64,000 nucleotides of DNA from Myxococcales bacterium (lineage in GTDB: Bacteria > Myxococcota > Myxococcia > Myxococcales > Myxococcaceae). Positions 1 to 46,440 of the stretch are shown here, piece by piece. The stretch is taken from contig JAUYSO010000017.1 of the NCBI GenBank assembly GCA_030696265.1, positions 8,368-72,367 of the forward strand, written 5' to 3'. The notes beneath the pieces are model-generated. The model was not told the origin of the DNA and made no database searches. It worked only from the letters and a program-made list of their open reading frames with translations. The translations under genes and the position numbers were made by a program. Each line of letters starts with the position of its first letter. Position 1 is the first letter of the stretch.

Positions 1-679
1 CCGGGTTGAACAACACGGGGCTCCACGGTCCACCCACCGCCTCCTGTTTGAAGAACGCGACCCACACCGGCCGCTCGTGCCGCGCCGACACCGGCTCCGT
101 GCCGCCCTTGGAGAGGAAGCGCAGCACCACGCGTGCCACGCTGTCGGTGACCCGAATCGAATCGAACGCCACGCCCCAGCCCTTCGACTCGACGTGGGTG
201 AACCACTCGGCGGGGCTCTTCGCGACCACCACCTTCAGCGTCAGGTCGGTGTTGCGGTAGGCGCGGTCGATGCGCTTGCCCATCGGGCGCACGGTGTACT
301 TCTTCGAGAAGCCCGACGTGGTGCGGCCCGGGAGCACGTACAGCGTCTCGCGGATGAGCAGGTCGCCGCGCGGAGCGTCGTCGCCTTCCCATTTGTAGAT
401 CTCGGTGTTGCCCGCCATGTCCTCGAGCACGCGCTTGAGCATCTCGTCGGCGAGCGAGTCGATGGCGTCGGCGTCGGTCAGCTCTTCGCCGTTCTCGCGC
501 AGCTTCTTCTCCAGCGCCCAGATGGCCTGCTTGCGGAAGTCGCCGGGCTTCTCCTTCTCGACGACCGCTGCGAGCCCCTTCACGGAGCCGGGCAGCGTCT
601 TGATCTCGATGAAGGTCGACTTCGGGCGGGCCGTGGCCGGAGCCGCGGTGAGGAACAGGAGAGCGAGGATGGTGCGCAT
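1..679 (-). CDS. hypothetical secreted protein, partial (3' end lies beyond window start)
   Basis: Minus-strand frame is open from ATG (677-679) to position 1; I checked every plus-strand triplet in that frame and none is a stop. N-terminus MRTILALLFLTAAPATA looks like a signal peptide. GC3-rich codons. Lies 22 nt downstream of the NtrC-like gene on the same strand. Not in the ORF track because it has no stop inside the window. Confidence 0.6.
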   Translation of the reverse strand, partial: MRTILALLFLTAAPATARPKSTFIEIKTLPGSVKGLAAVVEKEKPGDFRKQAIWALEKKLRENGEELTDADAIDSLADEMLKRVLEDMAGNTEIYKWEGDDAPRGDLLIRETLYVLPGRTTSGFSKKYTVRPMGKRIDRAYRNTDLTLKVVVAKSPAEWFTHVESKGWGVAFDSIRVTDSVARVVLRFLSKGGTEPVSARHERPVWVAFFKQEAVGGPWSPVLFNP

Positions 680-701
680 GAGGAAGACCTGGAGAGCCCG
701 A

Positions 702-2117
702 CTACTCCTCGGGCGTTTCACCCTTCTGAATGAACCCGTACTTCTCGAGCTTGTAATAGAGCGCGCTCGTCTTGATGCCGAGCAGCCGTGCGGTCTCGGT
801 CTTCACGCCCTTCGCCTTCTCGTACGCGCGCTGAATGAGCTGCCGCTCGAGGTCCTCGAGGATGTCGGGGAGCGGCCGGTCGCCGTGGGGAATCGGCAAG
901 CCGCCCGGCGCCTGAGACACCCGCGTCGACGCGCTCTGGAGAAAGGCCGGCAGCTCCTTCTCTTCCAGCATCGTGCCTTCCGAGAAGACGAGGCCCTGCT
1001 CGATGGCGTTCTCGAGCTCGCGCACGTTGCCGGGCCACGCGTAGCGTTGGAGCGCCGACAGCGCGTCGGGTGAGAGGCCCTTCACGGCAGGATTGATGCG
1101 CGGGCCGTGCTTGGCGACGAAGTGCTTTGCGAGCAGCGTGAGATCCTCCGGCCGCTCACGCAGCGGCGGCACCACCAGCGGCACCACGGCGAGCCGGTAG
1201 TAGAGGTCTTCGCGGAACCGGCCAGAGGCGACCTCGGCCTTCAGGTCGCGGTGGGTCGCGCAGACGACGCGCACGTCGACCTTCACCGTCTCTTCGCCGC
1301 CGACGCGCTGAATCTCGCGCTCCTGCAAGACGCGCAGGAGCTTCGTCTGCACCGACGCGTTGATCTCGCCGATCTCATCGAGGAACAGCGTGCCGCCGTC
1401 CGCGAGCTCGAAGCGGCCGAGCTTGCGCTTGACGGCTCCGGTGAAGCTGCCGCGCTCGTGGCCGAACAGCTCGCTCTCGAGCAACGTCTCGGCGAGGGCG
1501 GCGCAGTGCGTGCTGACGAACGGCTTGTTCTTTCGCGGCGACAGCTCGTGGAGCATGCGGGCGACGAGCTCCTTCCCGGTGCCCGACTCGCCGTGCACGA
1601 TGACGGTCGCGTCGGTGGCCGCGGAGCGCTTGATGGCGACGTTGAGCTTCTGCATCGGCTCCGACTCGCCCAGCAGATGAGTGCCGGTGCGTTCCGCGAG
1701 ATCGCTCGACAGCGCCTCGGTCACGGCCTCGAGCCGGGTGACGCGCTGCCGGGTGCGGGAGAGCTCGAGCGCCGCGTCGACCTTCGCGCGCAAGAGGTCG
1801 GGCGGGAACGGCTTCTGGATGAAGTCGTACGCGCCGTTGCGCATCGCCTCGACGGCGGTCTCGATGGTGCCGAACGCGGTGACGACGAGCACCACCACCG
1901 ACGGCTCGTGCGCCTTCACCTGCTTGACGACCTCGAGGCCATCCATCGCCTCCATCTTGAGGTCGGTCACCACCACGTCGGCGCCCTTCGCCTGAAAGCC
2001 CGCGACGCCCTCGAGGCCGTTGCGGAACGCGAGCACCTCGTGCCCGGCCTTCTTCAGTGTGACGGCCATGCCTTCACGCATGGTGTCGTTGTCATCGATG
2101 ACCAGCACTCGCGCCAT
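702..2117 (-). CDS. sigma-54-dependent response regulator (NtrC family enhancer-binding protein)
   Basis: Receiver domain [10 protein letters not shown]...VVTDLKM. AAA+ sigma-54 activation domain with Walker A GESGTGKE and the GSFTGA (GAFTGA-type) motif. C-terminal [18 protein letters not shown]. Start taken at the internal Met of ORF 702..2129. Confidence 0.9.
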
Positions 2118-2170
2118 GGGCGGCACCATAGCGTGCGCCGACCGGGAGGCGATGAGTGTCGGGAGCGGCT

Positions 2171-3433
2171 ATGAAGGCAGGGGTGAAACCGTTCTGGATT
2201 CTCCTCGTGCTCGCCGCCTGTCCGCCGCCTGAGCCGAGCTGCAGAACAGGTCGATCCGTTCGGCCGTCACCGACGTCCCTGCTGCTCGTGGCCGGGGTGC
2301 CACAGAGCGTCGTGCTCGTCCTCGACGGCCCCGACTGTCGCTTGCCTGAAGGCGTGCTGAACGCCTCGCCCCGATTCTCCACGCCCTCGGGAGAGCCGGC
2401 CACGGTGGCGGTCGACGCCGTCAGGCAGGGCTCCGATCGTTTCGGGCCAACGGTCGAGGTCGAGCTCACGTTTCCGGCGCTCGGTCCCGGCACGCACTTC
2501 CTCCAGCTCTTCCTCGAGCCGAGCCTCAGCGCGCTCCAGCGTCCCGTCTTCGTCGCGGCCGACCGGCGAGGTGACGCAGGCTTCGCGGTGACTCTGCCCG
2601 AACCGTGCGTGCGACCCGCGCGAACGACGGCGGGCACCCAGTTCTGTGGCAACGGCAGCACCGGGCGCGTCGTCAGCTTCAGAGATGGCCAGCGCCGCGA
2701 CTGGCCTGGCGTGGACCGGGTGCTCACCGCTGGAGCTGTCGTCTGGGCCATCGGAGGGAGCTCGGTCGAGCGTCACGAAGAGCGCCCGGACGGAGGCCTC
2801 GCGTTGACCGCGAGCGCAACCATGACCCAGACAAGGCTCGTCTCGTGGGCGGACGAGCTGAGCGCGATCGTGGGCGGCGACCGGTATGACTTCGATGCCG
2901 ACGCCGGCGCGCTCTCGCGGCGCGCGCTGGGCGGCGCCTCTGTTTGGCGATGGAGCGAGGGCGCGCGGGTCATGACGCTCTCTCGCGACCTCTGGTGCGA
3001 CGAAAACGTGTGCCGACCGAACGCCGATCGTTCCACGGTCCTCGGGCTCGACTCGTCATTCCTCTGGCTCGTGAACACCGCGACGACGGGCATCACCACG
3101 CTCGCGCCCATGAACGACCAATCCGAGTTCACCACCATTCGGGCGCTCAGCCGGCCCTTCGGACTCGACGCTGGCGACGCCTTCACCCTCCCCATTCCTG
3201 CCGGCTTCCAGCCGAGAAACGCGCCACCCGAGTTCGCTGCTGGGTGGCCTCCGCTGTTGAGCTCGAGCCCGGATGCGGGCCGGCCACGAAACCTCCTCCT
3301 CACTCAGCGCAGCACTGGCACCTCGTTCGACGTGCTCGGCCCAGACCTGCTGGGGGCGAGCCGCGACTTCCTCTTCTTCGCCGGCGCCTCGTCGAACGAG
3401 CTCAAGGTCATTCCACTTCCGTTGTCGCCATGA
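2171..3433 (+). CDS. lipoprotein, paralog A of a three-member tandem family (function unknown)
   Basis: Lipobox LLVLAAC. GGGAG Shine-Dalgarno 5 nt before ATG 2171; the GTG conserved among the paralogs is at 2183. Shares the C-terminal motif GTSFDVLxxDLLGASRDFLFFxGASxNELKVIPLPLSP and N-terminal CPPPxPxC...PTSLLL with the next two genes. Stop overlaps the ATG at 3430. Confidence 0.75.
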   Translation: MKAGVKPFWILLVLAACPPPEPSCRTGRSVRPSPTSLLLVAGVPQSVVLVLDGPDCRLPEGVLNASPRFSTPSGEPATVAVDAVRQGSDRFGPTVEVELTFPALGPGTHFLQLFLEPSLSALQRPVFVAADRRGDAGFAVTLPEPCVRPARTTAGTQFCGNGSTGRVVSFRDGQRRDWPGVDRVLTAGAVVWAIGGSSVERHEERPDGGLALTASATMTQTRLVSWADELSAIVGGDRYDFDADAGALSRRALGGASVWRWSEGARVMTLSRDLWCDENVCRPNADRSTVLGLDSSFLWLVNTATTGITTLAPMNDQSEFTTIRALSRPFGLDAGDAFTLPIPAGFQPRNAPPEFAAGWPPLLSSSPDAGRPRNLLLTQRSTGTSFDVLGPDLLGASRDFLFFAGASSNELKVIPLPLSP

Positions 3434-3468
3434 CGCTGTGTGTGTCGGGAGCGGCTAAGAACCCGGGG

Positions 3469-4713
3469 GTGAAACACCTTGGGCTCGTCGTGGTCCTCGC
3501 CGCCTGCCCGCCGCCGAACCCTATCTGCCAGACCTTTCCCTCTGGCAGGCCCGCGCCGACGTCGCTCTTGATGATGGACGGCGTGCCGCAGACCTTCTCC
3601 TTCGTCTTCGACGGCCCAGCGTGTCAGCTCCCCGAAGGTGCGCTGAGCGCCAGGCCCCTGTTCACGGCGCCGTCGGGTGAGCGCGTCACGGTGGGCGTCG
3701 AGCGCATCAGGCAGAGTTCCGACCCAAGCACCTTCCAGAACACCATCGAGTTCGACCTCGTGTTTCCGGCCCTGACGCGAGGCACGTATCTTCTGCAGCT
3801 CTTCGTCGAGCCGACGATCACCGCGATTCAGCTTCCGGTCTTCGTCGCGGGCGATCGCAGGGCCGATGCTGGCCTCGTCGTCACGCTGCCAGAGCGCTGT
3901 CTGCGCCCGGCGCGCACGCTCGCCGGCACCCAGTTCTGCTGGAGCCAGGACGCTGGCTACAGCGCCTTCCGGGACGGGCAGCGCCTCGTGTTCCCGGCAG
4001 GCGTCGATCGCCTGCTCCCCGTTGGAAACGTCGCCTGGGCCATTGGTCGCGGCGACCTCAGCAGGTTCGAAGACCAACCTGACGCCGGGCTCGTGCTGAC
4101 CGCGAGGGCGACTCAGCTGCAGACGGGTGGCGGCAGCTCGGCCGACGAGACGAGCGCCATCGTCGGCGGCGTCCGCTACGACTTCGACGCAGGGAGCTTC
4201 TCCCAGCGGAACCTGTCGAACGTCACGGGCAACCGGTGGGCAGAAGGCGCGCGGGTCATGAGCGTCGTCGGTGGAACGATCTGCGACGATCGTGATCAGT
4301 GCGGAGCCTCCGAAGGGCCGGCTCGTTTCCTGGCGCTCGACCCGACCCACCTCTGGCTGCTGACTCCGAGGTCGTCGACGTTCAGCGGCTCGGGCACCTT
4401 CGGTGCGCAGGAGCTCAACACGGTCAGTCTGCTCAAACGGCCCATCGGACCCGACGCAGGCGTCGCGTTGACGGTGCCCCTGCCCGTCGGGCTCACGCCA
4501 CACTTCATCGATGGGAGCGATCTCGCCGGAGGGCTCCCGCCCGTGCTGTCCGTGGCTGACCAATCGCGCGTCCTGCTCCTCAGCCACGGCAGGGAGGGAA
4601 CCTCGTTCGATGTCCTGCCGAAGGACGTCCTGGGCGCGAGCCGTGACTTCCTCTTCTTCCCCGGCGCCTCGCCGAACGAGCTCAAGGTCATTCCACTTCC
4701 GTTGTCGCCTTGA
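3469..4713 (+). CDS. lipoprotein, paralog B (function unknown)
   Basis: Conserved leader gtgtcgggagcggctaagaacccgggggtgaaac, then GTG 3469; alternative ATG 3430 overlaps the stop of paralog A. Lipobox VVVLAAC. The last ~60 nt are identical to paralog A at the nucleotide level. Confidence 0.75.
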   Translation: MKHLGLVVVLAACPPPNPICQTFPSGRPAPTSLLMMDGVPQTFSFVFDGPACQLPEGALSARPLFTAPSGERVTVGVERIRQSSDPSTFQNTIEFDLVFPALTRGTYLLQLFVEPTITAIQLPVFVAGDRRADAGLVVTLPERCLRPARTLAGTQFCWSQDAGYSAFRDGQRLVFPAGVDRLLPVGNVAWAIGRGDLSRFEDQPDAGLVLTARATQLQTGGGSSADETSAIVGGVRYDFDAGSFSQRNLSNVTGNRWAEGARVMSVVGGTICDDRDQCGASEGPARFLALDPTHLWLLTPRSSTFSGSGTFGAQELNTVSLLKRPIGPDAGVALTVPLPVGLTPHFIDGSDLAGGLPPVLSVADQSRVLLLSHGREGTSFDVLPKDVLGASRDFLFFPGASPNELKVIPLPLSP

Positions 4714-4897
4714 GGCTGCTCCCACGTTGCGTCGGAGCGCGTTCGACGACGTCGTCTGCCTGACGCCTGGTGTTCTCCGCGGCGGTCCTCGAGACGACGC
4801 GGTGGCGTGACCAGACGCGAGCGCAGCGTGAGTTCGCGCCAGGCATGTCCGCTGACGGGGAGACGATGAGTGTCGGGAGCGGGTAAGAACCCGAGGC

Positions 4898-6181
4898 GTG
4901 AAACCCCTCTGGCTCGTCGTACTCCTTGCTGGGTGTCCACCGAACGACTCCACCTGCCGGACCGTTCCTACTGGCCGGGCGACGCCGACGTCGCTGCTGC
5001 TCATGGCCGGCGCGCCGCAGACCGTGTCGTTCGCGTTCGACAGCCCTGCGTGTCAGCTCCCCGAAGGCGCGGTGACGGCACGGCCAGTGCTCACGACGGC
5101 GTCTGGCGCGACCATGCCTGTGATGGTGGGCCGGATCGTTCAAGTCACACAGCCTGTCGATGGAGTTGCGTCATTTCGAGGCTTCTTTCAGAGCAGCATC
5201 GAGTTCGACCTCGTGTTTCCGGCGCTGACGCGAGGCACGTACTTTCTGCAGCTCTTCGTCGAGCCGACCATCATCGCGATGCAGATTCCCGTCTTCGTCG
5301 CGAGCGATCTCCGGGCTGATGCAGGCACGCTGGTCTCGTTCGACGCGCCGTGCTCCCTGCCCGCTCGGACTCGCGCCGGCACGATGTTCTGTGGCTTCGA
5401 CGGCGGCTTCGTCGTGCGCACTGGCTCGTCGAAGACCACCATGCCTGCAGTCACCAGGGTCATCGCCGTCGGGAACGTCGCGTGGACGCTCGACGCCTTT
5501 GCGCAGCTGCGTCGCTACGAAGACAGGCCCGATGGTGGGCTGATGCTGACCGCGACTGCGAGCGAGGCGCGGGGACTCATCGTCGCCGATGAAGACGCCG
5601 CTGCGCTCAGCGAACCCGACTTCAACACCACTTTCACACGGTTCGACTACGACCCGGCGCGTGGTGCACTCACCCGCCGCCCCTTGCCCTTGCTCGCCGA
5701 GGACTGGCTGCTCGATGGCGCTGAGTTCGTGGGCGTCTCGCGGCGCGCCACCTGCACTGGACCCGAGATGTGCCGTGACACGACGGCCGACTTCATGGGC
5801 CTGCTTGGGTACGACGCACAGTTCCTCTGGTTGTTCGACAACCTCGGCAGTTTCGGGCGCACCGACGAGCCGACTCGAATGCTCCTGCTGCGGCGGCCAG
5901 TACGCCTCGACGGCGGAGAGTCCTTCACCACGCCGATTCCGCCTGGCTGGGCACCCGCGGCGACAAATGCGCGACGCGAGGTCGGCGGTGAGCTGCCTCC
6001 GTTGTTGTACTCGCTGCCAGACGCCGGCGTGCCTCGCACGATGTTGGTGCGCCAGACGGCAGAAGGAACGTCGTTCGACGTGCTCCCTGCAGACCCGGTC
6101 GGCTTCAGCCGCGACTGGCTCATCTTTGCGGGGAGCACCAGCCGCGAGCTCCGCCTCGTTCGGCTTCCGCTCTCGCCATGA
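4898..6181 (+). CDS. lipoprotein, paralog C (function unknown)
   Basis: Same leader, gagtgtcgggagcgggtaagaacccgaggcgtgaaac, before GTG 4898. Lipobox VVLLAGC. C-terminal motif EGTSFDVLPADPVGFSRDWLIFAGSTSRELRLVRLPLSP. Stop overlaps the NUDIX start as ATGA. Confidence 0.75.
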   Translation: MKPLWLVVLLAGCPPNDSTCRTVPTGRATPTSLLLMAGAPQTVSFAFDSPACQLPEGAVTARPVLTTASGATMPVMVGRIVQVTQPVDGVASFRGFFQSSIEFDLVFPALTRGTYFLQLFVEPTIIAMQIPVFVASDLRADAGTLVSFDAPCSLPARTRAGTMFCGFDGGFVVRTGSSKTTMPAVTRVIAVGNVAWTLDAFAQLRRYEDRPDGGLMLTATASEARGLIVADEDAAALSEPDFNTTFTRFDYDPARGALTRRPLPLLAEDWLLDGAEFVGVSRRATCTGPEMCRDTTADFMGLLGYDAQFLWLFDNLGSFGRTDEPTRMLLLRRPVRLDGGESFTTPIPPGWAPAATNARREVGGELPPLLYSLPDAGVPRTMLVRQTAEGTSFDVLPADPVGFSRDWLIFAGSTSRELRLVRLPLSP

Positions 6182-6735
6182 CCCTCCTCGACTTGCTCGC
6201 CGGCCACCACCCTCTCGATGACAAGGAGCGCGTCGATCTCGCGTCGATGCGCGACTTCGCGAAGAGCCTCGCCGAGCCGTTCTCACGCGCCCAGTGGCCC
6301 GCGCACTTCACCGGCAGCGCGGTGGTGGTGACGCCCGATGGCACGCGCGTCTGCCTGGTCCTGCACGCGAAGCTCCACCGCTGGCTGCAGCCCGGTGGGC
6401 ACGCCGACCCGGCAGACGATGGCTCGATGGAAAGGACGGCGCTGCGAGAGGCGCGTGAAGAGACGGGAATGGACGTCGCCCTGCACCCTCACGCACCCCG
6501 GCCGCTCGACGTCGACGTGCACGTCATCCCCGCGCGCAAAGCCGACCCGGAGCACCGTCACCTCGACGTGCGCTACCTCGTCGTCGCGCACAACCCCGAT
6601 GCGCTGAAGCACGACCCGAGCGAGTCGCATGGCGCGCAGTGGCTGAGCTGGGAGGACGCCCTGGCCCGCGCCGATGAAGCCCCGCTGCGTCGAATGCTCG
6701 AGAAGGCGCGCGCGGTCGTCACGCGAGATCGATGA
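6178..6735 (+). CDS. NUDIX hydrolase
   Basis: Nudix box GGHADPADDGSMERTALREAREETGMDV fits Gx5Ex7REUxEExGU. ATGA start/stop overlap with paralog C. Confidence 0.85.
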   Translation: MTLLDLLAGHHPLDDKERVDLASMRDFAKSLAEPFSRAQWPAHFTGSAVVVTPDGTRVCLVLHAKLHRWLQPGGHADPADDGSMERTALREAREETGMDVALHPHAPRPLDVDVHVIPARKADPEHRHLDVRYLVVAHNPDALKHDPSESHGAQWLSWEDALARADEAPLRRMLEKARAVVTRDR

Positions 6736-7264
6736 AGAACCGCACGCCGAGCAGCACCTGACTCGAGAAGACGTCTCCGCGGAGCAGCGGAAAACTGCCT
6801 CGAACGAAGACCTGGGCCACGCCGTCGAAGTTGCCCCACGAGCGATGCAGCTTCGCGGTGAGCTCCGGGCCGACCCGAATCGTCCATGCGTCGGGCACGG
6901 TGCGGCCCTTGAGCCCGACGCCCACGAACGCGCCGAGCGAGAACCACCGCCACGCCACCGGGCTCGCCGACGCGACGACGGTGCCCTCGAACGTTCCGGG
7001 CGCGAGCTGAAGCTCACCCTCGAGGAGCGCGCTGAACTTGAGCGCGCCGTGACGCTCCGCGGCCGAGTGGAACACCGCCAGCCCCAACCCAAGCGACAAC
7101 CGGCCACCGAAGCCCAGCCGCTCCCACAACCCCGACGCCCCGAGCGTGGGTCCGAGCGCGACGTTCTTGAACAGGCTCACCTCGTCGAAGCCGTGCTCCA
7201 CACCGGTGAGCGGCCCCGCGTGCGCAAGCCCACAGAGGAACATGACGACGAGCGCCCACCGCAT
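6719..7264 (-). CDS. hypothetical secreted/outer-membrane protein
   Basis: Signal peptide MRWALVVMFLCGLAHA. Alternating-hydrophobic, Gly-rich beta-strand-like sequence. Convergent with and slightly overlapping the NUDIX 3' end. Confidence 0.55.
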   Translation of the reverse strand: MRWALVVMFLCGLAHAGPLTGVEHGFDEVSLFKNVALGPTLGASGLWERLGFGGRLSLGLGLAVFHSAAERHGALKFSALLEGELQLAPGTFEGTVVASASPVAWRWFSLGAFVGVGLKGRTVPDAWTIRVGPELTAKLHRSWGNFDGVAQVFVRGSFPLLRGDVFSSQVLLGVRFFIDLA

Positions 7265-7427
7265 CAGCCCAGTATCGCCGAAGTGAAGCCCCTTGCTGTT
7301 CACTCGAGGTGGCATCGGAGCACCCGCACACCCGGATCCGCTGCTGCTGAGGTGTCACTCCGGGCGCCTGCCCTGCTGAACCCTGCAGAATCGCGCGCTG
7401 GCGAGGCGCTTGCTCAAGGGAGCAGGC

Positions 7428-8222
7428 ATGAACGCTCGCAACCGCCTGCCGACCGTCGCCCGTCACAGCCTCGAAGCGCTCCTCGTCGAAGGGCGCATGC
7501 CGCTCGACGCGGCGCTGCAGCTCTCGCATGCCCTGGTTCGAGCGATCGAGGATCATCACGCGACAGGTCAGGCCATCGGGCCCTTCGACACCGGCTCCAT
7601 CGCGGTCGACGTGCTCGGCCACGTGGTGATCAAACCGTCGCTGCGACCCGAGGCGGCGGCGCCTGAGCTCGGCGTCGGCGGCGTGGCGGACCTGCTCTCC
7701 GATCTGCACAGCCTGGGCGGCGTCTTGTACCGCCTGTTCGCCGGCCTCTCGCACCAGGACGCCGCGAAGCGCTCGGGAGGCTCGCTCGTGCCGCCCAGCC
7801 GCTTCAACCCCACCATCGACGACGCCCTCGACGGCCTCGTGCTCACGCTGCTCGACCCCGACCCCATCGAGCGCCCGTACCGCCTCGCGCAGGTCGACGG
7901 TCAGCTGCTCGCCATCTTCGCCGAGCTGGGCCTCGAGCCGTCGCCTCAGGCGGTCTCGTCGTGGGTCGCCTCGCATCGCCCGGCCGCGCCAGTGGCTACC
8001 GCCGCTCCGATTCAGCTCACCGCCCCGGTTCCGCTCGCGAAGCTGAGCGCGCCACGCCGCACGCCGCCGCCAGTGAAGTGGGCGCTCGACGCAGAAGACG
8101 AAGCCGACGTGGCTGACGAGTCGTTCGACCCGGCCTGGGAAGGGCCAGTGCGCTTCGACCTGTGGGCTGCCGCGAGCGCCGGCGTCGTCGCGCTCGGCCT
8201 CTCGCTCATCGCGCTGATGTAG
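7428..8222 (+). CDS. kinase-like (degenerate protein-kinase C-lobe) protein with C-terminal TM helix
   Basis: ATG 7428 has a GGGAG Shine-Dalgarno 7 nt upstream; the ORF-track start at 7410 is TTG. Remnants of Hanks-kinase subdomains VIII-X: APELG and DLHSLGGVLYRLFAG. No glycine loop, VAIK or HRD motif. C-terminal hydrophobic helix AAASAGVVALGLSLIALM. Confidence 0.6.
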   Translation: MNARNRLPTVARHSLEALLVEGRMPLDAALQLSHALVRAIEDHHATGQAIGPFDTGSIAVDVLGHVVIKPSLRPEAAAPELGVGGVADLLSDLHSLGGVLYRLFAGLSHQDAAKRSGGSLVPPSRFNPTIDDALDGLVLTLLDPDPIERPYRLAQVDGQLLAIFAELGLEPSPQAVSSWVASHRPAAPVATAAPIQLTAPVPLAKLSAPRRTPPPVKWALDAEDEADVADESFDPAWEGPVRFDLWAAASAGVVALGLSLIALM

Positions 8223-9082: not shown

Positions 9083-10837
9083 TCAGAGCGCGTTGCAGGC
9101 ACCCACGATTCGGCAGGTGGCGCCGTCGAGGCCGTTGCACGTCATGCTCAATGACGTCTGGTTGATGACGGTGCAGCTGCCGGTGCCTGCCGAGCGTTGG
9201 GTCGAGAGCGTGCCGAGCGTGAAGCCGAGCGGGCAGATGTTCGTGGCGCTCACGGTGAAGGTCTCGGTCGGAGGGACGAACGCGCAGGTCTTCGTCGCTG
9301 ACGTCGTCGTATAGGCACCCAGGAGCACGCACTGCGCCGTCGCGAGCGGATTCGTGTCACGGCAGTCGTCGACGGCGTTGCAGGTGTTGGGCAGCCGGAA
9401 CCCCGACGGCGGGCTCGCCCCGCTGCACTGGCTGGTGGTCGGCCCGAAGCAGTACCCATCGTTGTCGCCGTCGGGCCGCACCGACAGCAGTTGGTAGATC
9501 GCCGGGTTCGAGTCGTTGCAGTCGTTCTGGGTGATGCAGTTGAACGGGAAGCTCAAGCCAGGCGGAGCCGTGTTTCCCGCGCACTGGTTGACGACGGGGC
9601 CGCTGCTGCAGCGACGGTCGCCGTCGGCGTCGACGATGAACACCGAGATGGCGAACAGGCTGGCGTTCGCATCGTCGCAGTCGTCTCCGAGACAGGTCGT
9701 CGCCAGGCGCCGCCCCACTCCAGGTGCGGCTCCGCTGCACTCGTTCGTCGCGGCCCCTGCGCAGAACGAGTCGCTGTCGGCGTCAGCGCGAGTGGAGAGC
9801 AGTTGGTACAGCTGCGGATTGGTGTCGTTGCAGTCGTCCTGCGCGCCACATGAGGCGGGCGCGCGTCGACCCGGAGCCAGCGTCGCTCCGGCGCAGTCTT
9901 GAACCGTCGCGCCGATGCATCGGCTGTCGTTGTCGACGTCAGCGCGCGCCGAGAGGAGCTGGTAGCGCTGCGCGTCGGCGTCGTTGCAGTCGTCTTGTGC
10001 AGCACACGTCGCGGGGTCGCGTTGGCCGGCGCCCAGCGAGACGCCGACGCACGCCTGGACGACCGAGCCGACACACCGGCCGTCGGTGTCGACGTCCGCG
10101 CGTGCAGGGAGGAGCCGGTAGCTCGCGGCGATGGCCGGTGCGCAGTCGAGGCCCAGCGACACATTCGGAGCGACCAGACCCACTGGGCACGAGCCAGCGA
10201 ACATGCGCAAGCTGTCGGGGCAGGCGGTCACCGTCACACTCGAGCTCGCATAGCGATCGTCGTCTTCATCGGGGTTGCACACGATGGTCACCCCTTCATC
10301 GACCTGACCATTGCAGTTGTTGTCGATGCCATCGCACGCCTCGATGTTCGGCACGCACGTCGAACCGCCATCGCCGACGGTGCCGCCGCCGAAGTTCCCA
10401 CCGTCGCCGACGACTCCCCCGCCGAAATTCCCACCGTCGCCGACGACTCCGCCGCCGAAGTTCCCGCCGTCGCCGACGGTGCCGCCGCCGAAGTTCCCGC
10501 CGTCGCCGACGACTCCCCCGCCGAAATTCCCACCGTCGGTGTCTCCGCCACCGACGTTGCCGCCCGCGACACTGCCGCCAGCGGCGTTTCCGCCCGCGCT
10601 GTTCCCACCGGCGACGTTGCCACCGGCAGCGTTCCCGCCAGCGCTGTTCCCACCAGCGTCGCCACCAGCGACGTTGCCACCGGCAGCGTTCCCGCCGCCG
10701 ACGGGGCTTCCGCCACCACTTCCGCCTGCCGTTCTGCCGCCTGCGCTTCCACCTGCCGCGCCGGCATCATCAGTGCCCGGCATGGTTCCACACCCGACGA
10801 CGAAGAAGACGAGGACGACGATTTGACGGAGTGACAT
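9083..10837 (-). CDS. Cys-rich repeat lipoprotein (Gly-rich tandem repeats plus six copies of a C...DDCNDxN putative metal-binding-motif repeat)
   Basis: Start MSLRQIVVLVFFVVGCG (lipobox) inside ORF 9083..10924. Five repeats GGNFGGG(V/T)VGD; about six repeats of the type QDDCNDADAQRYQLLSARADVDNDSRC. Confidence 0.75.
   Translation of the reverse strand: MSLRQIVVLVFFVVGCGTMPGTDDAGAAGGSAGGRTAGGSGGGSPVGGGNAAGGNVAGGDAGGNSAGGNAAGGNVAGGNSAGGNAAGGSVAGGNVGGGDTDGGNFGGGVVGDGGNFGGGTVGDGGNFGGGVVGDGGNFGGGVVGDGGNFGGGTVGDGGSTCVPNIEACDGIDNNCNGQVDEGVTIVCNPDEDDDRYASSSVTVTACPDSLRMFAGSCPVGLVAPNVSLGLDCAPAIAASYRLLPARADVDTDGRCVGSVVQACVGVSLGAGQRDPATCAAQDDCNDADAQRYQLLSARADVDNDSRCIGATVQDCAGATLAPGRRAPASCGAQDDCNDTNPQLYQLLSTRADADSDSFCAGAATNECSGAAPGVGRRLATTCLGDDCDDANASLFAISVFIVDADGDRRCSSGPVVNQCAGNTAPPGLSFPFNCITQNDCNDSNPAIYQLLSVRPDGDNDGYCFGPTTSQCSGASPPSGFRLPNTCNAVDDCRDTNPLATAQCVLLGAYTTTSATKTCAFVPPTETFTVSATNICPLGFTLGTLSTQRSAGTGSCTVINQTSLSMTCNGLDGATCRIVGACNAL
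10375..10545 (-). repeat. intragenic tandem repeat, 33-nt period, about 5 copies (encodes GGNFGGGxVGD)
   Basis: gaagttcccaccgtcgccgacgactcccccgcc repeated almost identically on the plus strand. Confidence 0.8.
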
Positions 10838-10920
10838 GGACGAACACCCTACCGGGCGCATCGCGTGGCCGACCGGACTGGCGCCTTCGTGACATCGTTT
10901 GGCGGGCGAGCCGCGGCGCC

Positions 10921-12942
10921 TCAACTCACTTCATTCGGTGACGGAGGCTTCGGCCGCACCACGTTCGCGAACTGCACGTGCTCCCGGAGCGTCTGCTCGA
11001 TCGCCTCGGTGAAGGGCTCTCCGATTGGCGCGCGCGACGACGAGCGGAGCCATCGCGCGAACCAGCGGTCGCCCAGCGGCAGCGCCAACGCCTCGAGGGT
11101 CGTCGTCGCCACCGTCGTCTCGGTGCGCGTGCTGGTCGTGACGCCCTGCCCAACGTTGTAGCCAGCCAGCAGCATCGACAGCCGCGCCGGCATCGACGCG
11201 GTCGACGAGATCAACATGCCGCCCTCGTCGTTGGTGTGCCGGCGCAGCGCGCGCAGGAAGTCGACGGACCACAAGGTCGGGTTCGCCTCGGGAGAGAATG
11301 GATCGAAGAAGATCAGATCGGCCCAGCCCGGCACGCCGTCGATCGTCTCTCGCGCGTCTCCCGGCAGCACGCGCCACGACAGCCCGGCGCCTTCCCAGTG
11401 TCCCTGGTCGAGCAGCGCTTCACACGCGGTCTTCCACGGCTGCAGAAACGAGAACCCGGCTGGGTCTCTCAACGCGAGCTCGAGCGCGGCGAGGTCCGAC
11501 TCCAGGCTGATGACCTCGACCGTGCGCTTGCGGCGCTCGCCCATCGCCTGGGCCTTCGAGAGCGCGGCGATCGCGTTCGCACCAGCCCCGAGCCCGACGT
11601 CGAGAATGACGAACGGCTCGTCACGGAACACCTCGAGGCGCTTCTCGAGCCCAGGCTGATCGACGAAGAGCGCGTTCGCCTCCTCCCACGGGCCGACCGG
11701 GTGCATCACCTCGCCGTGCTCGACGTGCCGCAACGCCCGCTGCCCCGCGCGCGTCATCACCACCTCGAACCCGCCCTGCCGGTCACCCGTCGCGCGAGGC
11801 CTGGTGTTCCTCGGCGCGAGCCGTTCGACCAGCTCGCGATACTCCGCGTCCCACCGGTTCTCGATGATGGCGTCGCGCATGCGCCGCGTGAGCTGTTGGA
11901 AATGATGCAGGTTGTGAATCGCGAGCAGCCGGCTGGCGAGGTGGTGCGAGCCCTGCGCGAGGTGGCGAAGGTACGAGCGTGTGTAGCGGGTGCACGTCGG
12001 GCAGCGGCAGCTCTCGTCGAGCGGGCGATCGTCGAAGCGGTACTCGTGCTTGCTGATGCGCAGGCGGCCGTCGAACGTGTACGCGTAGCCCTGCTGCGCC
12101 ATCATCGGCGGGATGATGCAGTCGAACATGTCGATGCCGCGGTGCACGCACTCGACGAGATCGATCGGCGTGCCCACGCCCATCAGGTAGCGCGGCTTCT
12201 CGGCCGGCAGCTGCGGCGCCGTGTGGCCCGTCATCTCGTAGAGCAGCTCGCGCGACTCACCGACCGCCAGCCCACCGATGGCGAACCCATCGAACGGGTG
12301 CGGCGTGAGGAACTGCGCGCTCTGGGTGCGCAGCGCCTTGAACACCCCGCCCTGCACGATCGCGAAGAGCGCCTGGCCCGTCGGGCGTGCGTCTCGGGCG
12401 GCGAGGCTGCGGAGCGCCCACCGATGCGTGCGCTCCATCGCGTCGGTGGTGACGGCCTCGCTCGACGTCGACGGCGGGCACACGTCGAGCACCATCATGA
12501 TGTCGCTGTTGATGGCGTTCTGCATCGCGATGCTGGACTCGGGCGAGAGCAGGTGGCGCTGGTTGTCGTACGGGCTGCGGAAGCGCGCGCCGGCCTCCGA
12601 GATCTCGCGCTCTCCCGGCAGGCTGAAGATCTGAAAACCACCCGAGTCGGTGAGCACGCCGTGCGGCCACTGCATGAAGGGGTGAATGCCGCCGGTCTTC
12701 TCGAACACCCCGATGCCCGGCCTCAGGAGCAGGTGGTACGTGTTCGACAGACAGAAGCGCGCGCCGCTCTCGGCCACGTCGTCCATCGTGAGGAACCGCA
12801 CGTGGGCATGCGTCGCGACCGGCATGAACGCGGGCGTCTCGAGCACCCCTCGCCGCGTGTGGAGCCGGCCCGCACGGGCTCCCGACGACGACGACGCGAG
12901 CAGCTCGAAACGCAAGGGGCCTTCAGGAGCAGGTGGCGTCAT
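10921..12942 (-). CDS. tgt: queuine tRNA-ribosyltransferase fused to a C-terminal MnmC-like (DUF752) SAM-dependent methyltransferase domain
   Basis: N-terminal ~390 aa carry TGT motifs: VLTDSGGFQ, MVLDVC, LMGVGTP...GIDMFDC, and the Zn site CRCPTCTRY...H. C-terminal ~270 aa: FVILDVGLGAGANAIAAL and DLIFFDPFSPEANPTLWSVDFLRALRR match the MnmC N-terminal methyltransferase (DUF752) signature DGFxPxKNPxLW. Confidence 0.85.
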   Translation of the reverse strand: MTPPAPEGPLRFELLASSSSGARAGRLHTRRGVLETPAFMPVATHAHVRFLTMDDVAESGARFCLSNTYHLLLRPGIGVFEKTGGIHPFMQWPHGVLTDSGGFQIFSLPGEREISEAGARFRSPYDNQRHLLSPESSIAMQNAINSDIMMVLDVCPPSTSSEAVTTDAMERTHRWALRSLAARDARPTGQALFAIVQGGVFKALRTQSAQFLTPHPFDGFAIGGLAVGESRELLYEMTGHTAPQLPAEKPRYLMGVGTPIDLVECVHRGIDMFDCIIPPMMAQQGYAYTFDGRLRISKHEYRFDDRPLDESCRCPTCTRYTRSYLRHLAQGSHHLASRLLAIHNLHHFQQLTRRMRDAIIENRWDAEYRELVERLAPRNTRPRATGDRQGGFEVVMTRAGQRALRHVEHGEVMHPVGPWEEANALFVDQPGLEKRLEVFRDEPFVILDVGLGAGANAIAALSKAQAMGERRKRTVEVISLESDLAALELALRDPAGFSFLQPWKTACEALLDQGHWEGAGLSWRVLPGDARETIDGVPGWADLIFFDPFSPEANPTLWSVDFLRALRRHTNDEGGMLISSTASMPARLSMLLAGYNVGQGVTTSTRTETTVATTTLEALALPLGDRWFARWLRSSSRAPIGEPFTEAIEQTLREHVQFANVVRPKPPSPNEVS

Positions 12943-13039
12943 CGCGGCGCGCGTGTAGCAGTCTTCCTCGCCGACCGCGGACTACAGTGTGCGTAGAATC
13001 ATCCATTGAGACTGAACGCCCTCGCCGACATGCTGTGGC

Positions 13040-19743: not shown

Positions 19744-21327
19744 CTACGGACAGCCCACGTACGCGAAGTACAGCTCGGTGTTGCCGGCCGGCGCATTGCG
19801 ATCGTCACGCCAGCAGAACGCGAAGGTGTTGCCGTTCCACAGCGCGGTCGTGAACGTGGACGAGCCCGAGCCGCTCGAGAGCCGCAGATCGCTTCCGTTC
19901 TTCACGCCGGTGCCCGACAGCTGCATGAAATAAATGGCCGGCCGGCCCATGGTGACGCGCTCGTCCTGCCACGAGACGCCGTACTCGAAGCCGTTCCAGT
20001 CGATGCTGGCGTAGCCCGAGAAGCCGGCCGCGTTGGTGAGGCGCACCTCGGCGCCAAGTTTCTGGCCCGCGTCCGACAGGCGCTGGAAGTACACCTCGGC
20101 GTTGCCGTCACGCGTGTCGTGCCAGACCAGGGCCCACTCGGCGCGGTCAGGGTTCCACGCGAGGTCGGCCCAGGCCGAGTCGGCGGCGTTGTTGGTGATG
20201 CGCAGCTCGGCGCCCACCGGAGTGCCGTCGACGGCGAGCCTGCGGAAGTAGATCTCACGATTACCGTCACGCCAGTCGGTCCACGCGAGGCCGAAGCCCT
20301 GCCCGCTCCACTTGAGGATGGGGTAGCTCTGACGCTGCGGGTCGGTGGTGACGCGCACCTCGTTCCCCAGGCGCGTGCCGTTGGTGTCGAAGCGCATGAA
20401 GAAGAGGTCTTGCCGGTTGTTGCCGGCGCGCTCGTCTTCCCACACCATCGCGAACTCGGTGCCGGTCCACACGACGTCGGGCCAGTCGGAGTCGAGCGGC
20501 GCGCTGGTCAGTCGCACCGGAGCCCCGAGCGGCTGGCCGGTGTTTGAGATGGCCCGGTAATACAGCTCGAGGTTGTCGACGGAGTCGTCTGCGTAGACCA
20601 GCCCCCAGCGTGAGCCGGTGAAGGCCAGCGCCGGGTGCGTCGAGATGCCGGGCGTGGTGCTGACGCGAACGTCTCCGCCTCGTCGCGCGCCCTGCTTGTC
20701 GAGGGTGGTGAAGTAGATGTCGCCCTTCATCGACGCGCCGTCACGCGTGTCCTGCCAGGCGAGGCCGAAGCCATTCGTTGCAGACGCGATGTAGACGAAG
20801 TCGGTCGTGGCCGGATCGTTGGTGAGGCGCAGGTCGCCAGAAGCGTTGGTGAGCAGGCCCTCGTCGACGGTGCCGTCGCAATCGTCGTCTTTGCCGTTGC
20901 ACGTCTCGGTGGCCGGCATGCCAGGCGTGCAGGTCTGCGCGGAGCCCATGGCGCACGTCGACTGAACGATGGCGCACTCTCCGACGCCGCACATCGCCGG
21001 CATCAGGTTCTCATCGATGGCGCCGTTGCAGTCGTCGTCGAGGCCGTTGCACGTCTCAGCGGTCGGAGCTCCCGGCGTGCAGGTCTGCGGCGCGCCCTGG
21101 AAGCAGGCGGAGATGGCCCGTTTGCACGCGCCAACGCCGCACTCGACCGACGGCTGCTCCTCGTCGACCAGCAGGTCGCAGTCGTCGTCGAGGCCGTTGC
21201 AGAGCTCGACGGTGGGAATGCACTCGGGCGGCAGGCCGGCGTCTTCTGCGCTGACGAGCTGAATGCGCGGGCCAGAGCAGGTGCAGCCCGTGAGGGAGAG
21301 GAGGAGGAAGAGACCGACCACTCGCAT
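19744..21327 (-). CDS. lipoprotein with three Cys-rich CNGxDDDCxG metal-binding-motif repeats and seven ~45-aa beta-propeller-like repeats
   Basis: Lipobox LLLSLTGCT. Repeats ETCNGLDDDCNGAIDE x3. Blade-like repeats contain DIYFTTL, ELYYRAI, DLFFMRF, EIYFRRL, EVYFQRL, AIYFMQL, ELYFAYV. Confidence 0.75.
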   Translation of the reverse strand: MRVVGLFLLLSLTGCTCSGPRIQLVSAEDAGLPPECIPTVELCNGLDDDCDLLVDEEQPSVECGVGACKRAISACFQGAPQTCTPGAPTAETCNGLDDDCNGAIDENLMPAMCGVGECAIVQSTCAMGSAQTCTPGMPATETCNGKDDDCDGTVDEGLLTNASGDLRLTNDPATTDFVYIASATNGFGLAWQDTRDGASMKGDIYFTTLDKQGARRGGDVRVSTTPGISTHPALAFTGSRWGLVYADDSVDNLELYYRAISNTGQPLGAPVRLTSAPLDSDWPDVVWTGTEFAMVWEDERAGNNRQDLFFMRFDTNGTRLGNEVRVTTDPQRQSYPILKWSGQGFGLAWTDWRDGNREIYFRRLAVDGTPVGAELRITNNAADSAWADLAWNPDRAEWALVWHDTRDGNAEVYFQRLSDAGQKLGAEVRLTNAAGFSGYASIDWNGFEYGVSWQDERVTMGRPAIYFMQLSGTGVKNGSDLRLSSGSGSSTFTTALWNGNTFAFCWRDDRNAPAGNTELYFAYVGCP

Positions 21328-21458
21328 GGCCGGTGCTGTCTCATGGATCGCCAGACGAAGTCACTTCACAGGCTGGTCACGATTTCTCGTGCGACGAGAA
21401 CGACTGTGAAGGCGCAGCACCTTTGAACGTGAGCCCGGTCTGCGGTCTGCTGTGGCGC

Positions 21459-27047: not shown

Positions 27048-27133
27048 GTTTCAGTGGCGTCACCTTGCCGTTTCCTGACGAGTGAAAGGGTCACGATCCT
27101 GCCTGCTGTTTGCGGGTAGGGTGGCGCCGCTCG

Positions 27134-29341
27134 ATGCGCCCGGTCATCGCCTTTGCAGCCTGCCTGTGGTCGGCCTCCGCGTTCGGGGCCATCTACGAGG
27201 CCGTCGTCGACGCCGACAACGAAGAAGACATCTTCGCGATGGTGCAGCGAGGCGACATCTCGCAGGACACGGGCGACACCCTGCTCGAGCTGCTTCGCGA
27301 AGGCGTCGACCTGAACTCGGCGCCGCGCGAGAGGCTCTATGACTTGCCCGGCCTCACCTACGACGACGTCGACAAGCTCATCCTCTACCGCACGCAGAAG
27401 GGCCGCATCGAAGACCCGGCCGAGCTCGTCGGCGCCGGGGTGATGACCGCCGAGCAGCTCATCGGCATCGCCGTCTACATCTCGCTCGAGCCGGTGAAAG
27501 AGAAGCTGCCAATCGGCGGCAAGCTTCGCCTGCTCACCCAATACACGCTGACCGATTCGCTCGCGCCGCCGGCGCTCTTCGCGGCCCGGCTCAGGGGCCC
27601 GCTCGACCTGACCGCCGGCGCCATGCTCGTCACCAGCCGGCTCGACCCGGTGCAGCCCCGCTTCGACCAGACGCTCCAGGGCCTCGCGACCGAAGGCTAC
27701 AGGTACCGCCTCGACGCGCCGCGCCTGTTCCTGCAGTGGCTCAACGGCAACCGCCGCGTCATCGTCGGCACCTTCACCATCGGCTTCGGCGAGCGCCTCA
27801 CGCTCGACAACACGCGCCGGGTGACCCCGCGCGGCCTCTACCTCACCGACGACTTCAGGCGAAACCAGGACCTCTCGACCCTCTGCCGCACCAGCGTCGA
27901 CACCGGCGCCACGCCGCCCCCCGAGTGTCAGGGTGACAGCCGCTACGTCACCGCCGACTACGCGACGCGCGACGCTTTCCGTGGCGTCGCCGGCAGCATC
28001 GAGAACCTCGACCTCGGCGACCAGCGCTCGCTCTCGCTCTACGGTTTCCTCTCGTACCAGTCGCGCGGCGTGTACCAGTACGATCTGTACGATCGCGCCA
28101 CCTGCCTCGACCCTTCGTCGAGCGACTCGGACTGCAGCTCGCCGCGCATCTCCATCCTGAACCCGCAGGACCCGAGCACCCCATGGCGGCTTCGCTACGC
28201 CACCCTGCCTGGCTTCTTCGACGAGCTCTCGGCCGGCGGCCACGTCGACTTCAAGCCCAACTACGCCCTTCGCTTCGGCATCACGGGGTACGGCGCGGTC
28301 CCCTTCTTCAACACCGTGCCTCCAGGCAGCGCGGTGCAGCCCGACTTCCAGGACACCTCGCGCTACCCCAACGGCGGCGCCTACGGAGCCATCGGCGTCG
28401 ACGCGCAGGCCGTGCTCGGCCCCGTCAACCTGCACCTCGAGGTGACGCGCAGCTTCGACAAGGCCATCAACAACCAGGGCGGCGGCTTCGGCGCCGTGCA
28501 GCGCACCACCTGGGCGCCCAAGGGCCACGAGCTCGAGGTCGTCTTCCGCTATTACGACAACCGGTTCCTCAACCCCTACGCACGGCCGTTCTCAGGGCCC
28601 GACGAAGACGCCGGCCAGCGGGCGCGCAACGAGCTCGGCGCGCGGGTGCGCTACTTCGGCAAGTTCAGTCGCGACTGGCAGTTTCGCGCCACCGCCGACT
28701 TCTGGACGCTGCCCTTCGCCGGCCGGGGAGGCCGCGCAGGCACCACCAACCTCATCCTCCTCACGCGCGTCGACTTCACGGGCTTCAGGGGCTTGAAGCC
28801 CAGCATCTGGTTCCGCCTGAGCGACAGAAACCTCGCCGTCAGCCAACGCGGGGTCTGCAGCCAGACCCAGGTGGTCTCGGGCATGCCCGAGTTCTTCAAC
28901 ACCCCGGACGACTTCGACGGCGAGGTCACCTTCTTCACCTGCGACTCGTACCGCGTCGTGCAGCGCATCGACGTGCGCCCCTTCGGCAAGCGCCTGGGCT
29001 TCACCGAGCAGGCCTCGTTCTCGTGGCGCGACGACCTCTCGAGCGCGTACCGCGAGAACTTTCGCAACGACCTGCAGGTCTGGGTCGAGGCGATGAGTCA
29101 GCCGGTCGACTGGCTCTCGCTGCGGCTGCGCTCACGCCTGCGCGCCGAGGGCATCGACAGCCCCACCACCTACGAAGACTCGCTGTGGACGTTCTTCGAG
29201 GCCGCGTGGATTCCGTTCAAGGGCACGCGCGTCGCGGCGCGCTACGACCTGTTCGTGTGGCTCGACCAACGGGCCTCGACCTTGCGCCGGCAGCCCTCTC
29301 CAGAGCATCGTTTCCTCCTCGACCTCCGCACCAGCTTCTGA
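27134..29341 (+). CDS. predicted outer-membrane beta-barrel protein with an N-terminal ComEA-like helix-hairpin-helix (DNA-binding) domain
   Basis: Signal peptide MRPVIAFAACLWSASAFGA. HhH: VDLNSAPRERLYDLPGLTYDDVDKLILYRTQKGRIEDPAELVGAGVMTAEQL. Then ~600 aa of alternating-polarity strands rich in G/Y/F/R. Ends ...FLLDLRTSF, a C-terminal Phe beta-signal. Confidence 0.7.
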   Translation: MRPVIAFAACLWSASAFGAIYEAVVDADNEEDIFAMVQRGDISQDTGDTLLELLREGVDLNSAPRERLYDLPGLTYDDVDKLILYRTQKGRIEDPAELVGAGVMTAEQLIGIAVYISLEPVKEKLPIGGKLRLLTQYTLTDSLAPPALFAARLRGPLDLTAGAMLVTSRLDPVQPRFDQTLQGLATEGYRYRLDAPRLFLQWLNGNRRVIVGTFTIGFGERLTLDNTRRVTPRGLYLTDDFRRNQDLSTLCRTSVDTGATPPPECQGDSRYVTADYATRDAFRGVAGSIENLDLGDQRSLSLYGFLSYQSRGVYQYDLYDRATCLDPSSSDSDCSSPRISILNPQDPSTPWRLRYATLPGFFDELSAGGHVDFKPNYALRFGITGYGAVPFFNTVPPGSAVQPDFQDTSRYPNGGAYGAIGVDAQAVLGPVNLHLEVTRSFDKAINNQGGGFGAVQRTTWAPKGHELEVVFRYYDNRFLNPYARPFSGPDEDAGQRARNELGARVRYFGKFSRDWQFRATADFWTLPFAGRGGRAGTTNLILLTRVDFTGFRGLKPSIWFRLSDRNLAVSQRGVCSQTQVVSGMPEFFNTPDDFDGEVTFFTCDSYRVVQRIDVRPFGKRLGFTEQASFSWRDDLSSAYRENFRNDLQVWVEAMSQPVDWLSLRLRSRLRAEGIDSPTTYEDSLWTFFEAAWIPFKGTRVAARYDLFVWLDQRASTLRRQPSPEHRFLLDLRTSF

Positions 29342-29347
29342 CCCACC

Positions 29348-46439: not shown

Positions 46440-46440
46440 G

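Follow-up and report, generated by a model that had tools for sequence, protein, structure and literature searches.

Three tandem genes for an undescribed family of predicted propeller lipoproteins appear to form a hypervariable cassette slot in a Myxococcales genome

The 64,000-nucleotide (nt) stretch of contig JAUYSO010000017.1 from a Myxococcales bacterium, referred to below as the window, has a G+C content of ~68% and carries typical chromosomal genes of Myxococcales (IleRS, PPDK, a TGT fusion, TonB-dependent receptors and Ser/Thr kinases). Three lipoprotein genes (A, B and C) lie in it on the same strand and are followed by a NUDIX hydrolase gene, and an NtrC-type activator (enhancer-binding protein, EBP) is encoded divergently on the opposite strand. 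Judged by comparison with related loci, the array is a hypervariable, recombining cassette slot, which holds 0–3 copies between conserved flanks among close relatives and whose copies are mosaic. The features of the locus, with protein lengths in amino acids (aa), are:

702-2117, minus strand: EBP, an NtrC-type enhancer-binding response regulator (Pfam, NCBIfam, translation)
2118-2182, plus strand: divergent intergenic region with leader copy 1 (2133-2182), two GGGAG motifs resembling ribosome-binding sites and, at 2171, a relic ATG in frame
2183-3433, plus strand: lipoprotein A, 416 aa from GTG 2183 (420 aa from the alternative ATG 2171)
3469-4713, plus strand: lipoprotein B, 414 aa from GTG 3469 (427 aa from the alternative ATG 3430), with leader copy 2 at 3442-3468
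4714-4897, plus strand: B-C spacer of 184 nt, with leader copy 3 at 4847-4897, 86% identical to the region upstream of A
4898-6181, plus strand: lipoprotein C, 427 aa, GTG start
6178-6735, plus strand: NUDIX hydrolase, 185 aa, whose ATG overlaps the TGA of C
3437-6120, unstranded: hypervariable core relative to the near-identical genome L003 (blastn and sliding-window identity)

An earlier sequence-only reading of this locus had described three tandem lipoproteins, about 50% identical, with lipoboxes LAAC, LAAC and LAGC, and the translations agree with it: the lipoboxes end in ...LLVLAAC (A), ...VVVLAAC (B) and ...VVLLAGC (C), and the pairwise identities are 55% (A/B), 45–46% (A/C) and 47–49% (B/C). 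The two stop/start overlaps that it had reported are also present in the sequence, both as ATGA (ATG 3430-3432 over TGA 3431-3433 for A/B, and ATG 6178-6180 over TGA 6179-6181 for C/NUDIX), and Pfam confirmed its naming of the NUDIX and NtrC-type genes. No further family copy was found by tblastn within the window. The EBP open reading frame (ORF) reaches an upstream ATG at 2129, but the second start at 2117 (MARVLVIDD) is likely the true one, because a frameshift between the two ATGs in the relative L004 leaves only the second start conserved. The EBP was correctly placed as the divergent neighbour of A; its distance from A, given as 55 nt, is 41–65 nt, depending on the start codons used. The intergenic region (2118-2182) is ~90% conserved in L003, L004 and L005.

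The loci of relatives (here numbered with the prefix L, and single proteins with P) were fetched both through the lipoprotein and through the NUDIX, and they differ strongly in the content of the slot between EBP and NUDIX:

window: EBP taken as reference; three family genes between EBP and NUDIX
L003: EBP 100% identical to that of the window; three family genes in the slot
L005: EBP 99% identical; two family genes in the slot
L009: EBP 94% identical (N-terminal part); two family genes, only 33–38% identical to those of the window
L004: EBP 95% identical; one family gene in the slot
L016: EBP 86% identical; one family gene, 31% identical to B
L010: EBP 85% identical; one family gene in the slot
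L014: EBP 91% identical; no family gene, with EBP and NUDIX directly divergent and 145 nt apart

The two neighbouring proteins of unknown function in L014 were tried as family members and rejected (hhalign probability <1%). The EBP is the divergent neighbour of a lipoprotein gene in seven lineages (the window, L003, L004, L005, L009, L010 and L016); a single lipoprotein gene with NUDIX and no EBP was found in L001, L002 and L006, and two family members, P0016 (from the same metagenome-assembled genome, MAG, as L003) and the distant P0029, are linked to neither EBP nor NUDIX. The family is therefore not confined to the EBP–NUDIX slot. P0016, encoded in L015 (6001-7206), where an ABC-F-type ATPase gene precedes it and a DUF2293 gene follows, is a fourth family member of that MAG and is 46% identical to B.

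A further observation concerns L001, in which a ~20-nt stretch, GTTGAGCCCCTGACGTTCC (within 9835-9875), lies upstream of the single lipoprotein gene. It matches the last codons, stop and spacer of the upstream paralog in L003 and L005, which suggests that L001 may once have had an upstream copy, since lost. The stretch is missing from the closely related L006.

Comparison with L003 placed the limits of the variable region. DNA identity is 99–100% over the left part, as far as the stop of A (positions 1 to 3436), and drops sharply beyond it, where the gene order also differs: window B corresponds best to L003 copy 3 (84.6%) and window C to L003 copy 2 (74%). From ~6100 identity climbs, to 91–93% through NUDIX and the next gene and to 98–100% by ~8400. 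The synonymous divergence (dS) follows the same course, with 0.02 for EBP, 0.024 for A, 0.36 for B, 0.67 for C and 0.27 for NUDIX, i.e. it is raised 15–30-fold in the core, and this pattern therefore points to replacement by diverged DNA and not to acceleration in place. Which relative of a lipoprotein is nearest also changes along its sequence. For the Ig part of B (see below) the closest are L005 copy 1 and P0008, both with C-type propellers, L003 copy 3 combines an Ig part like that of C and L005 copy 2 with a B-type propeller, and dS along the alignment of B with L003 copy 3 runs from ~0.9–1.0 through 0.03–0.2 to 0.4–0.5.

Two genes without a protein family lie inside the zone of raised divergence from L003. 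The first (6719-7315, minus strand) converges on NUDIX and overlaps its 3' end by 17 nt, and the second (7410-8222, plus strand) has a weak partial Ser/Thr-kinase match (pseudokinase-like).

The ratio dN/dS (omega) is 0.3–0.5 for the lipoproteins, 0.13–0.19 for NUDIX and 0.04–0.05 for EBP (the last in comparisons with L005 and L004), and no value robustly above 1 was obtained for whole genes or sliding windows, apart from noise where dS is near zero. Such values, together with the complete absence of the gene in L014, the rarity of the family and a slightly lower G+C at third codon positions than in neighbouring genes (0.79–0.84 vs 0.85–0.92), would suit dispensable structural or low-importance envelope proteins that evolve near-neutrally without a variable partner, with duplication, loss and recombination as by-products of tandem homology. 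We consider this unlikely: many motifs, six cysteines and the C-terminus are kept down to ~25% overall identity, a sign that purifying selection still acts on a functional, folded protein, all three ORFs are intact, and the variation is concentrated in one propeller sector instead of being evenly spread.

The ends of the genes behave differently from their bodies. The leader core GTGTCGGGAGCGGSTAWGAA occurs exactly three times in the 64 kb (at 2156, 3442 and 4870; chance expectation 0.01), as the sequence-only reading had seen, but alignment of the three upstream regions with six related loci identified it as a homologous 5' gene end (a GGGAG ribosome-binding-like motif, a relic ATG and the first codons) and not as a free-standing element. 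The ancestral ATG of the leader is kept in A and reads AAG in B and C, and 1-nt indels shift the relic ATG out of frame in window C, L003 copy 3, L001 and L006. This leaves GTG-AAA (M-K-x-L-W) as the single start that every copy has. In L003, L005 and L001 the downstream copies have a leader of a second type in front of them. A and C share 86% identity over 43 non-coding nt, and the last 95 nt of A and B are 92% identical, so the reported near-invariance of the C-terminus holds for A and B, while C has only 65% identity there. Since the gene bodies are only ~70% identical at the nucleotide level, the ends have been kept more alike than the bodies. An Rfam scan of the leaders and spacer gave no credible match (three sub-threshold matches all lay outside the leaders), and no common RNA fold was found among the three leaders (z-scores 0.2, −2.1 and −0.1). 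A 6-codon upstream ORF, found in the leader of some copies, was considered and dropped, as its ATG is ACG in L004 and in L003 copy 2.

A, B and C are probably lipoproteins, i.e. substrates of signal peptidase II, with lipidation and cleavage predicted from the signal peptides (MKPFWILLVLAA in A and MKPLWLVVLLAG in C, both cleaved before the cysteine). The lipobox motif (a signal peptide ending in [LVI][ASTVI][GAS]C) is conserved in all full-length relatives, and a CPPPxPxC linker follows it. In agreement with the earlier statement that no family could be recognised, no model of Pfam, NCBIfam or PADLOC matches A, B or C, and Pfam searches at E<5 across 22 family members revealed no shared family, including WD40, PQQ, Kelch, FG-GAP, TolB and NHL. 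A word-indexed search of 5.8 billion proteins returned 14 close relatives, and a HMMER profile search of 1.84 billion cluster representatives returned 121 at E≤1e-3 and 28 at E≤1e-10, nearly all of ~400–450 aa and with the same layout; a GTDB genome search with close alignment returned two loci. Every sampled named member is annotated as a hypothetical protein, and the named organisms are Myxococcales, Myxococcaceae or Archangiaceae MAGs, the other members being unnamed metagenome sequences. In alignment A2, protein A reads the same as P0006 (NCBI MAG Myxococcales bacterium Q8S33_06325); it is 98% identical to L003 copy 1, and the best segment matches of C are the independently recovered metagenome proteins P0014, P0012 and P0008. 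As far as these searches reach, A, B and C belong to a small, undescribed family of lipoproteins of ~400 aa, found solely in MAGs of Myxococcales, Myxococcaceae and Archangiaceae.

AlphaFold models of B (pLDDT 80.2, pTM 0.78) and C (pLDDT 85.2, pTM 0.82) agree on the architecture. The predicted fold is an Ig-like beta-sandwich (approximately residues 45–142 in B) followed by a 6–7-bladed beta-propeller, in which four-stranded antiparallel blades are arranged in a circle and the last strand is formed by the conserved ...ELxVxPLPLSP C-terminus. Searches of the PDB returned generic propellers only. Six cysteines beyond the lipobox are conserved across broad family alignments, enough for three disulfides, and they fit an oxidising, extracytoplasmic location. 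In M. xanthus, a lysine at position +2 of the mature lipoprotein directs it to the inner membrane and an alanine at +7 to the matrix (PMC3222651). The mature N-termini of the family are CPPP or CPPN, and because both sorting signals are missing, we infer an outer-membrane location by default. Column entropy is highest at residues 261–330, about two blades with indels, and lowest in LLQLFVEPTI, ARTxAGTxFC, RxEDxPDGG and the last 40 residues. A phage or plasmid origin of the family was rejected: tblastn against phage and plasmid collections found no similarity, and the viral structure search returned generic propeller and Ig matches only.

The NUDIX domain (Pfam PF00293, 8e-14) has an intact catalytic core (REAREETGM), and the upstream part of its Nudix box is two residues longer than in GX5EX7REUXEEXGU. 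The nearest solved structure is that of an uncharacterised NUDIX protein (3fcm, 1.4e-9), followed by weak Ap4A-hydrolase matches. The enzyme is without a signal peptide and is 77–90% identical across the loci examined; 4231 homologues were found at E≤1e-10, the best 120 of them all 75–90% identical. In nine independent loci, with lipoproteins down to ~31% identical, the last lipoprotein gene again overlaps NUDIX by 4 nt; in L010 and L011 a 39-nt gap takes the place of this overlap. Unlike it, the A/B overlap is not conserved in relatives. As the start codon of NUDIX overlaps the end of the last copy (ATGA), transcription and translation probably run on from the array into NUDIX. To this extent the proposed coupling to NUDIX is supported. 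The further proposal that the lipoproteins bind a ligand processed by the enzyme appears unlikely, as the lipoproteins are exported and NUDIX has no signal peptide, most of its thousands of homologues have no lipoprotein neighbour, and the evolutionary rates are very different. NUDIX is without the lipoprotein neighbour in L012 (an Archangium MAG), L013 and L014, having other neighbours in the first two, and the coupling looks positional, and not that of a biochemical pathway, because the gene is widespread in Myxococcaceae without the lipoprotein. In L006 (7233-9551) the NUDIX ORF continues into an AMP-binding (acyl-CoA-synthetase-like) gene as one 772-aa ORF: the genes may be genuinely fused, or an error of assembly or a false frameshift may mimic a fusion; in L001, 98% related to L006, the two genes are separate.

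The best overall explanation, to which we give a probability of roughly 45%, is that A, B and C are fast-turnover binding lipoproteins of the envelope, encoded in a recombining cassette slot, and that their link to NUDIX is positional. The genes occupy a cassette-like slot between two conserved genes, that of the NtrC-type response regulator and that of the widespread cytoplasmic NUDIX. With the conserved 5' leader and 3' terminal block as its anchors, recombination would shuffle Ig and propeller segments between paralogs and alleles and import diverged segments. The proteins would most likely serve as envelope-anchored binding modules, whose propeller contacts a variable external or periplasmic partner, with residues ~260–330 (two blades) as the specificity-determining sector.

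Several points weigh against this explanation. These are: (i) dN/dS is nowhere robustly above 1, and relaxed constraint with recombination would suffice without diversifying selection, (ii) all sequences are metagenome assemblies, in which tandem paralogs and strain mixtures can be mis-assembled into false mosaics, a concern partly offset by variants that are identical across independent datasets (P0002 is L003 copy 3 and P0010 is L005 copy 1), (iii) the lipoprotein–NUDIX overlap persists at ~31% lipoprotein identity and without the EBP (L001 and L006), which could mean a functional tie, (iv) the EBP neighbours the array in seven lineages, (v) L016 and L017 carry a sigma-54-like CGGCGCC-GTCG-TTGCT (9/12, correct GG/GC spacing) between EBP and the lipoprotein gene, and (vi) surface exposure as opposed to periplasmic orientation cannot be predicted for these proteins.

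Two further proposals concern the role of the array. According to the first, the slot is a strain-specificity locus of Myxococcaceae, in which diverged alleles would be maintained and shuffled through the conserved leader and C-terminal block as recombination anchors, and the variable two-blade sector would determine recognition or protection; possible roles would lie in self/non-self discrimination, in outer-membrane exchange (as cargo or gatekeeper) or in resistance to phages or competitors' effectors. We regard it as doubtful. According to the second, the proteins are immunity or defence lipoproteins, i.e. periplasm-facing inhibitors of competitors' envelope-targeting toxins, or phage blockers. 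Variable tandem arrays in which such immunity genes build up ("orphan immunity") are known, and the variable copy number, the presence or absence among close relatives, and the mosaics and diverged alleles between conserved flanks resemble them, while the lipid anchor and conserved cysteines indicate an extracytoplasmic location. On the other hand, no toxin, secretion-system or mobile-element gene adjoins the array in any locus examined, there is no PADLOC match and no phage or plasmid similarity, and two-domain proteins of 400 aa are large for immunity proteins, which makes this proposal improbable.

The EBP has the features of an activator of the sigma-54 system: its architecture is REC + Sigma54_activat + AAA_lid_14 + HTH_8 (Pfam), with an AAA+ GAFTGA-type contact loop for sigma-54 (GSFTGA), a Fis-type HTH and the phospho-acceptor Asp52. 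The sequence-only reading took the array for an operon controlled by it. The sigma-54 consensus TGGCACG-N4-TTGCW was scanned with ≤2 mismatches and with a GG/GC-anchored score out of 12. Upstream of A or C no site with ≤2 mismatches was found, and the scored scan did not exceed background in front of either gene; the best site upstream of A scored 6/12, against a background of ~1.2 sites of ≥8/12 per kb per strand. Validated sigma-54 promoters of M. xanthus are degenerate and mostly intragenic (PMC9765219), so a weak motif is compatible with EBP control. Inside C lie two sigma-54-like sites with correct GG/GC spacing, CGGCACGGCCAGTGCT at 5076-5091 (plus strand, 10/12) and CGGCGCGCCACCTGCA at 5741-5756 (plus strand, 9/12), the latter ~440 nt upstream of the NUDIX start, where it could be an internal promoter; the background of such sites is high (26 at ≥9/12 in 128 kb). 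Scans for sigma-70-like promoters and intrinsic terminators gave no useful site, including in the B-C spacer, which could be an internal promoter and translation start region.

It is thus possible that the neighbouring activator controls the array. The fuller model, a sigma-54 operon under this activator (e.g. in starvation or development) with envelope proteins and NUDIX acting in one pathway (surface layer or substrate binding), agrees with the EBP adjacency and the 9/12 site noted above, the intact GSFTGA loop and Asp52, the degeneracy of known promoters and the conserved NUDIX overlap. In L014, however, the EBP (91%) with its downstream 409-aa and GNAT genes adjoins NUDIX without a lipoprotein, the pair of lipoprotein and NUDIX stands without EBP in L001 and L006, and in Archangium other genes lie between an EBP of 78% identity and NUDIX. 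A regulator kept without the lipoprotein and a lipoprotein without the regulator argue against dedicated pairing. Moreover, the lipoproteins are exported while NUDIX is cytoplasmic, no transporter is encoded between them, and NUDIX is far more widespread than the lipoprotein family. Taken with the 6/12 site upstream of A, this leaves the model quite improbable, and the EBP-controlled operon proposed earlier is unsupported.

Downstream of the EBP, on its strand, lies a conserved pair of genes for a ~410–425-aa protein without a Pfam family and a GNAT acetyltransferase (window 2-700, minus strand; L003 5438-7125; L005 1524-3253; L014 2753-4428; L016 2809-4493). The unit of EBP, unknown protein and GNAT is more stably conserved than the adjacency of EBP and lipoprotein, and in L010 other genes separate the EBP from the pair.

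The lipoproteins might instead be accessory sensors in the signalling pathway leading to the adjacent response regulator, with propellers binding an envelope or environmental cue. The analogy would be LpqB, an actinobacterial propeller lipoprotein encoded with the MtrAB two-component system, which resembles the present case in the genetic linkage of a beta-propeller lipoprotein to a response regulator. The conserved adjacency to a regulator with an intact receiver domain and a fold suited to binding a ligand or partner agree with such a role. The locus differs from that of LpqB in the divergent orientation of the regulator, its persistence without the lipoprotein (L014), the hypervariability of the lipoprotein and the lack of a histidine kinase, none being encoded in the neighbourhood. 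Slow co-evolution would be expected of such partners, yet the lipoproteins are 33–38% identical where the regulator is 94% identical, and two family members are unlinked to any regulator. An accessory sensor is accordingly the least expected of the roles considered, and highly improbable.

Returning to the cassette slot of envelope binding lipoproteins, several known systems resemble it in part. The propeller surface lipoproteins of TonB-dependent uptake systems in Bacteroidota, BT1487/BtuK2 (PDB 4r5o) and XusB (PDB 9hqe), share with A–C the lipid anchor, a similar length and a beta-propeller, and BtuK1 and BtuK2 are also encoded by adjacent paralogous lipoprotein genes, within one operon (PMC12751083). 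They belong to another phylum, the sequence identity is 8–10% and the whole-chain TM-score ~0.26. No transporter gene adjoins the array in the window or close loci, the nearest being ~38 kb away, the array has neither an adjoining TonB-dependent transporter nor a riboswitch, and nothing points to cofactor or siderophore binding. The distant member P0029 is encoded near a TonB-dependent receptor gene, on the opposite strand.

SitA, a polymorphic lipoprotein toxin of myxobacteria and a cargo of outer-membrane exchange, consists of a ~375-aa escort domain and a polymorphic C-terminal toxin (nuclease) domain, with the immunity gene sitI directly downstream (PMC8546572). The likeness lies in strain-variable myxobacterial lipoproteins, a tightly linked downstream gene and an escort domain of similar size. 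Membership in SitA was rejected: A–C end at ~415–427 aa in the conserved propeller strand and have no C-terminal toxin domain, and the C-terminal 40 residues of the family are among the least variable instead of being polymorphic. The downstream gene is the conserved, widespread NUDIX and not a polymorphic sitI, and there is no mobile-element context. With generic propellers (YncE, the PLL/CV39L lectins, the trilobed-protease propeller and BamB-like PQQ proteins) no sequence family is shared, and the present family differs from them in its extra N-terminal Ig-like domain and its own cysteine pattern. The family is new in sequence and familiar in structure and genomic arrangement (propeller lipoproteins in paralog arrays), and its locus is unexpectedly dynamic.

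If the cassette explanation is right, the array would add a protein family of domain-of-unknown-function grade with a confident fold prediction. It would also reveal a compact and hypervariable locus for envelope proteins in relatives of the social, predatory myxobacteria, a group whose variable outer-membrane proteins TraA and SitA are known to govern kin recognition. The locus would offer a simple test bed, through cassette swaps between near-isogenic strains. It also indicates that a conserved gene such as that of NUDIX can become translationally tied to a fast-evolving neighbour, which calls for caution in deducing function from operon coupling alone. Should the proteins be ordinary, dispensable components of the envelope, the locus would be of local interest only.

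Elsewhere in the window, a 686-aa fusion of a queuine tRNA-ribosyltransferase (TGT) with an MnmC-like SAM methyltransferase domain (Methyltransf_30) is encoded at 10921-12981 (minus strand) and recurs in L003 and L004. Two repeat proteins rich in cysteine, encoded at 9083-10930 and 19744-21360 (both minus strand), carry MopE-like metal-binding motifs, the first of them with a long GGN/AGGN low-complexity N-terminus and internal repeats offset by ~156 nt (blastn, 9770-9966 vs 9926-10122). A possible cluster for extracellular DNA-binding and nuclease functions, at 27086-32786 (plus strand), comprises genes for an HHH_3 protein, a staphylococcal-nuclease-like protein and a protein with three lamin-tail domains. 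Finally, consecutive genes for a TonB-dependent receptor, an HTTM/vitamin-K gamma-carboxylase-like membrane protein and an imelysin-like protein are located at 44037-50425 (minus strand).

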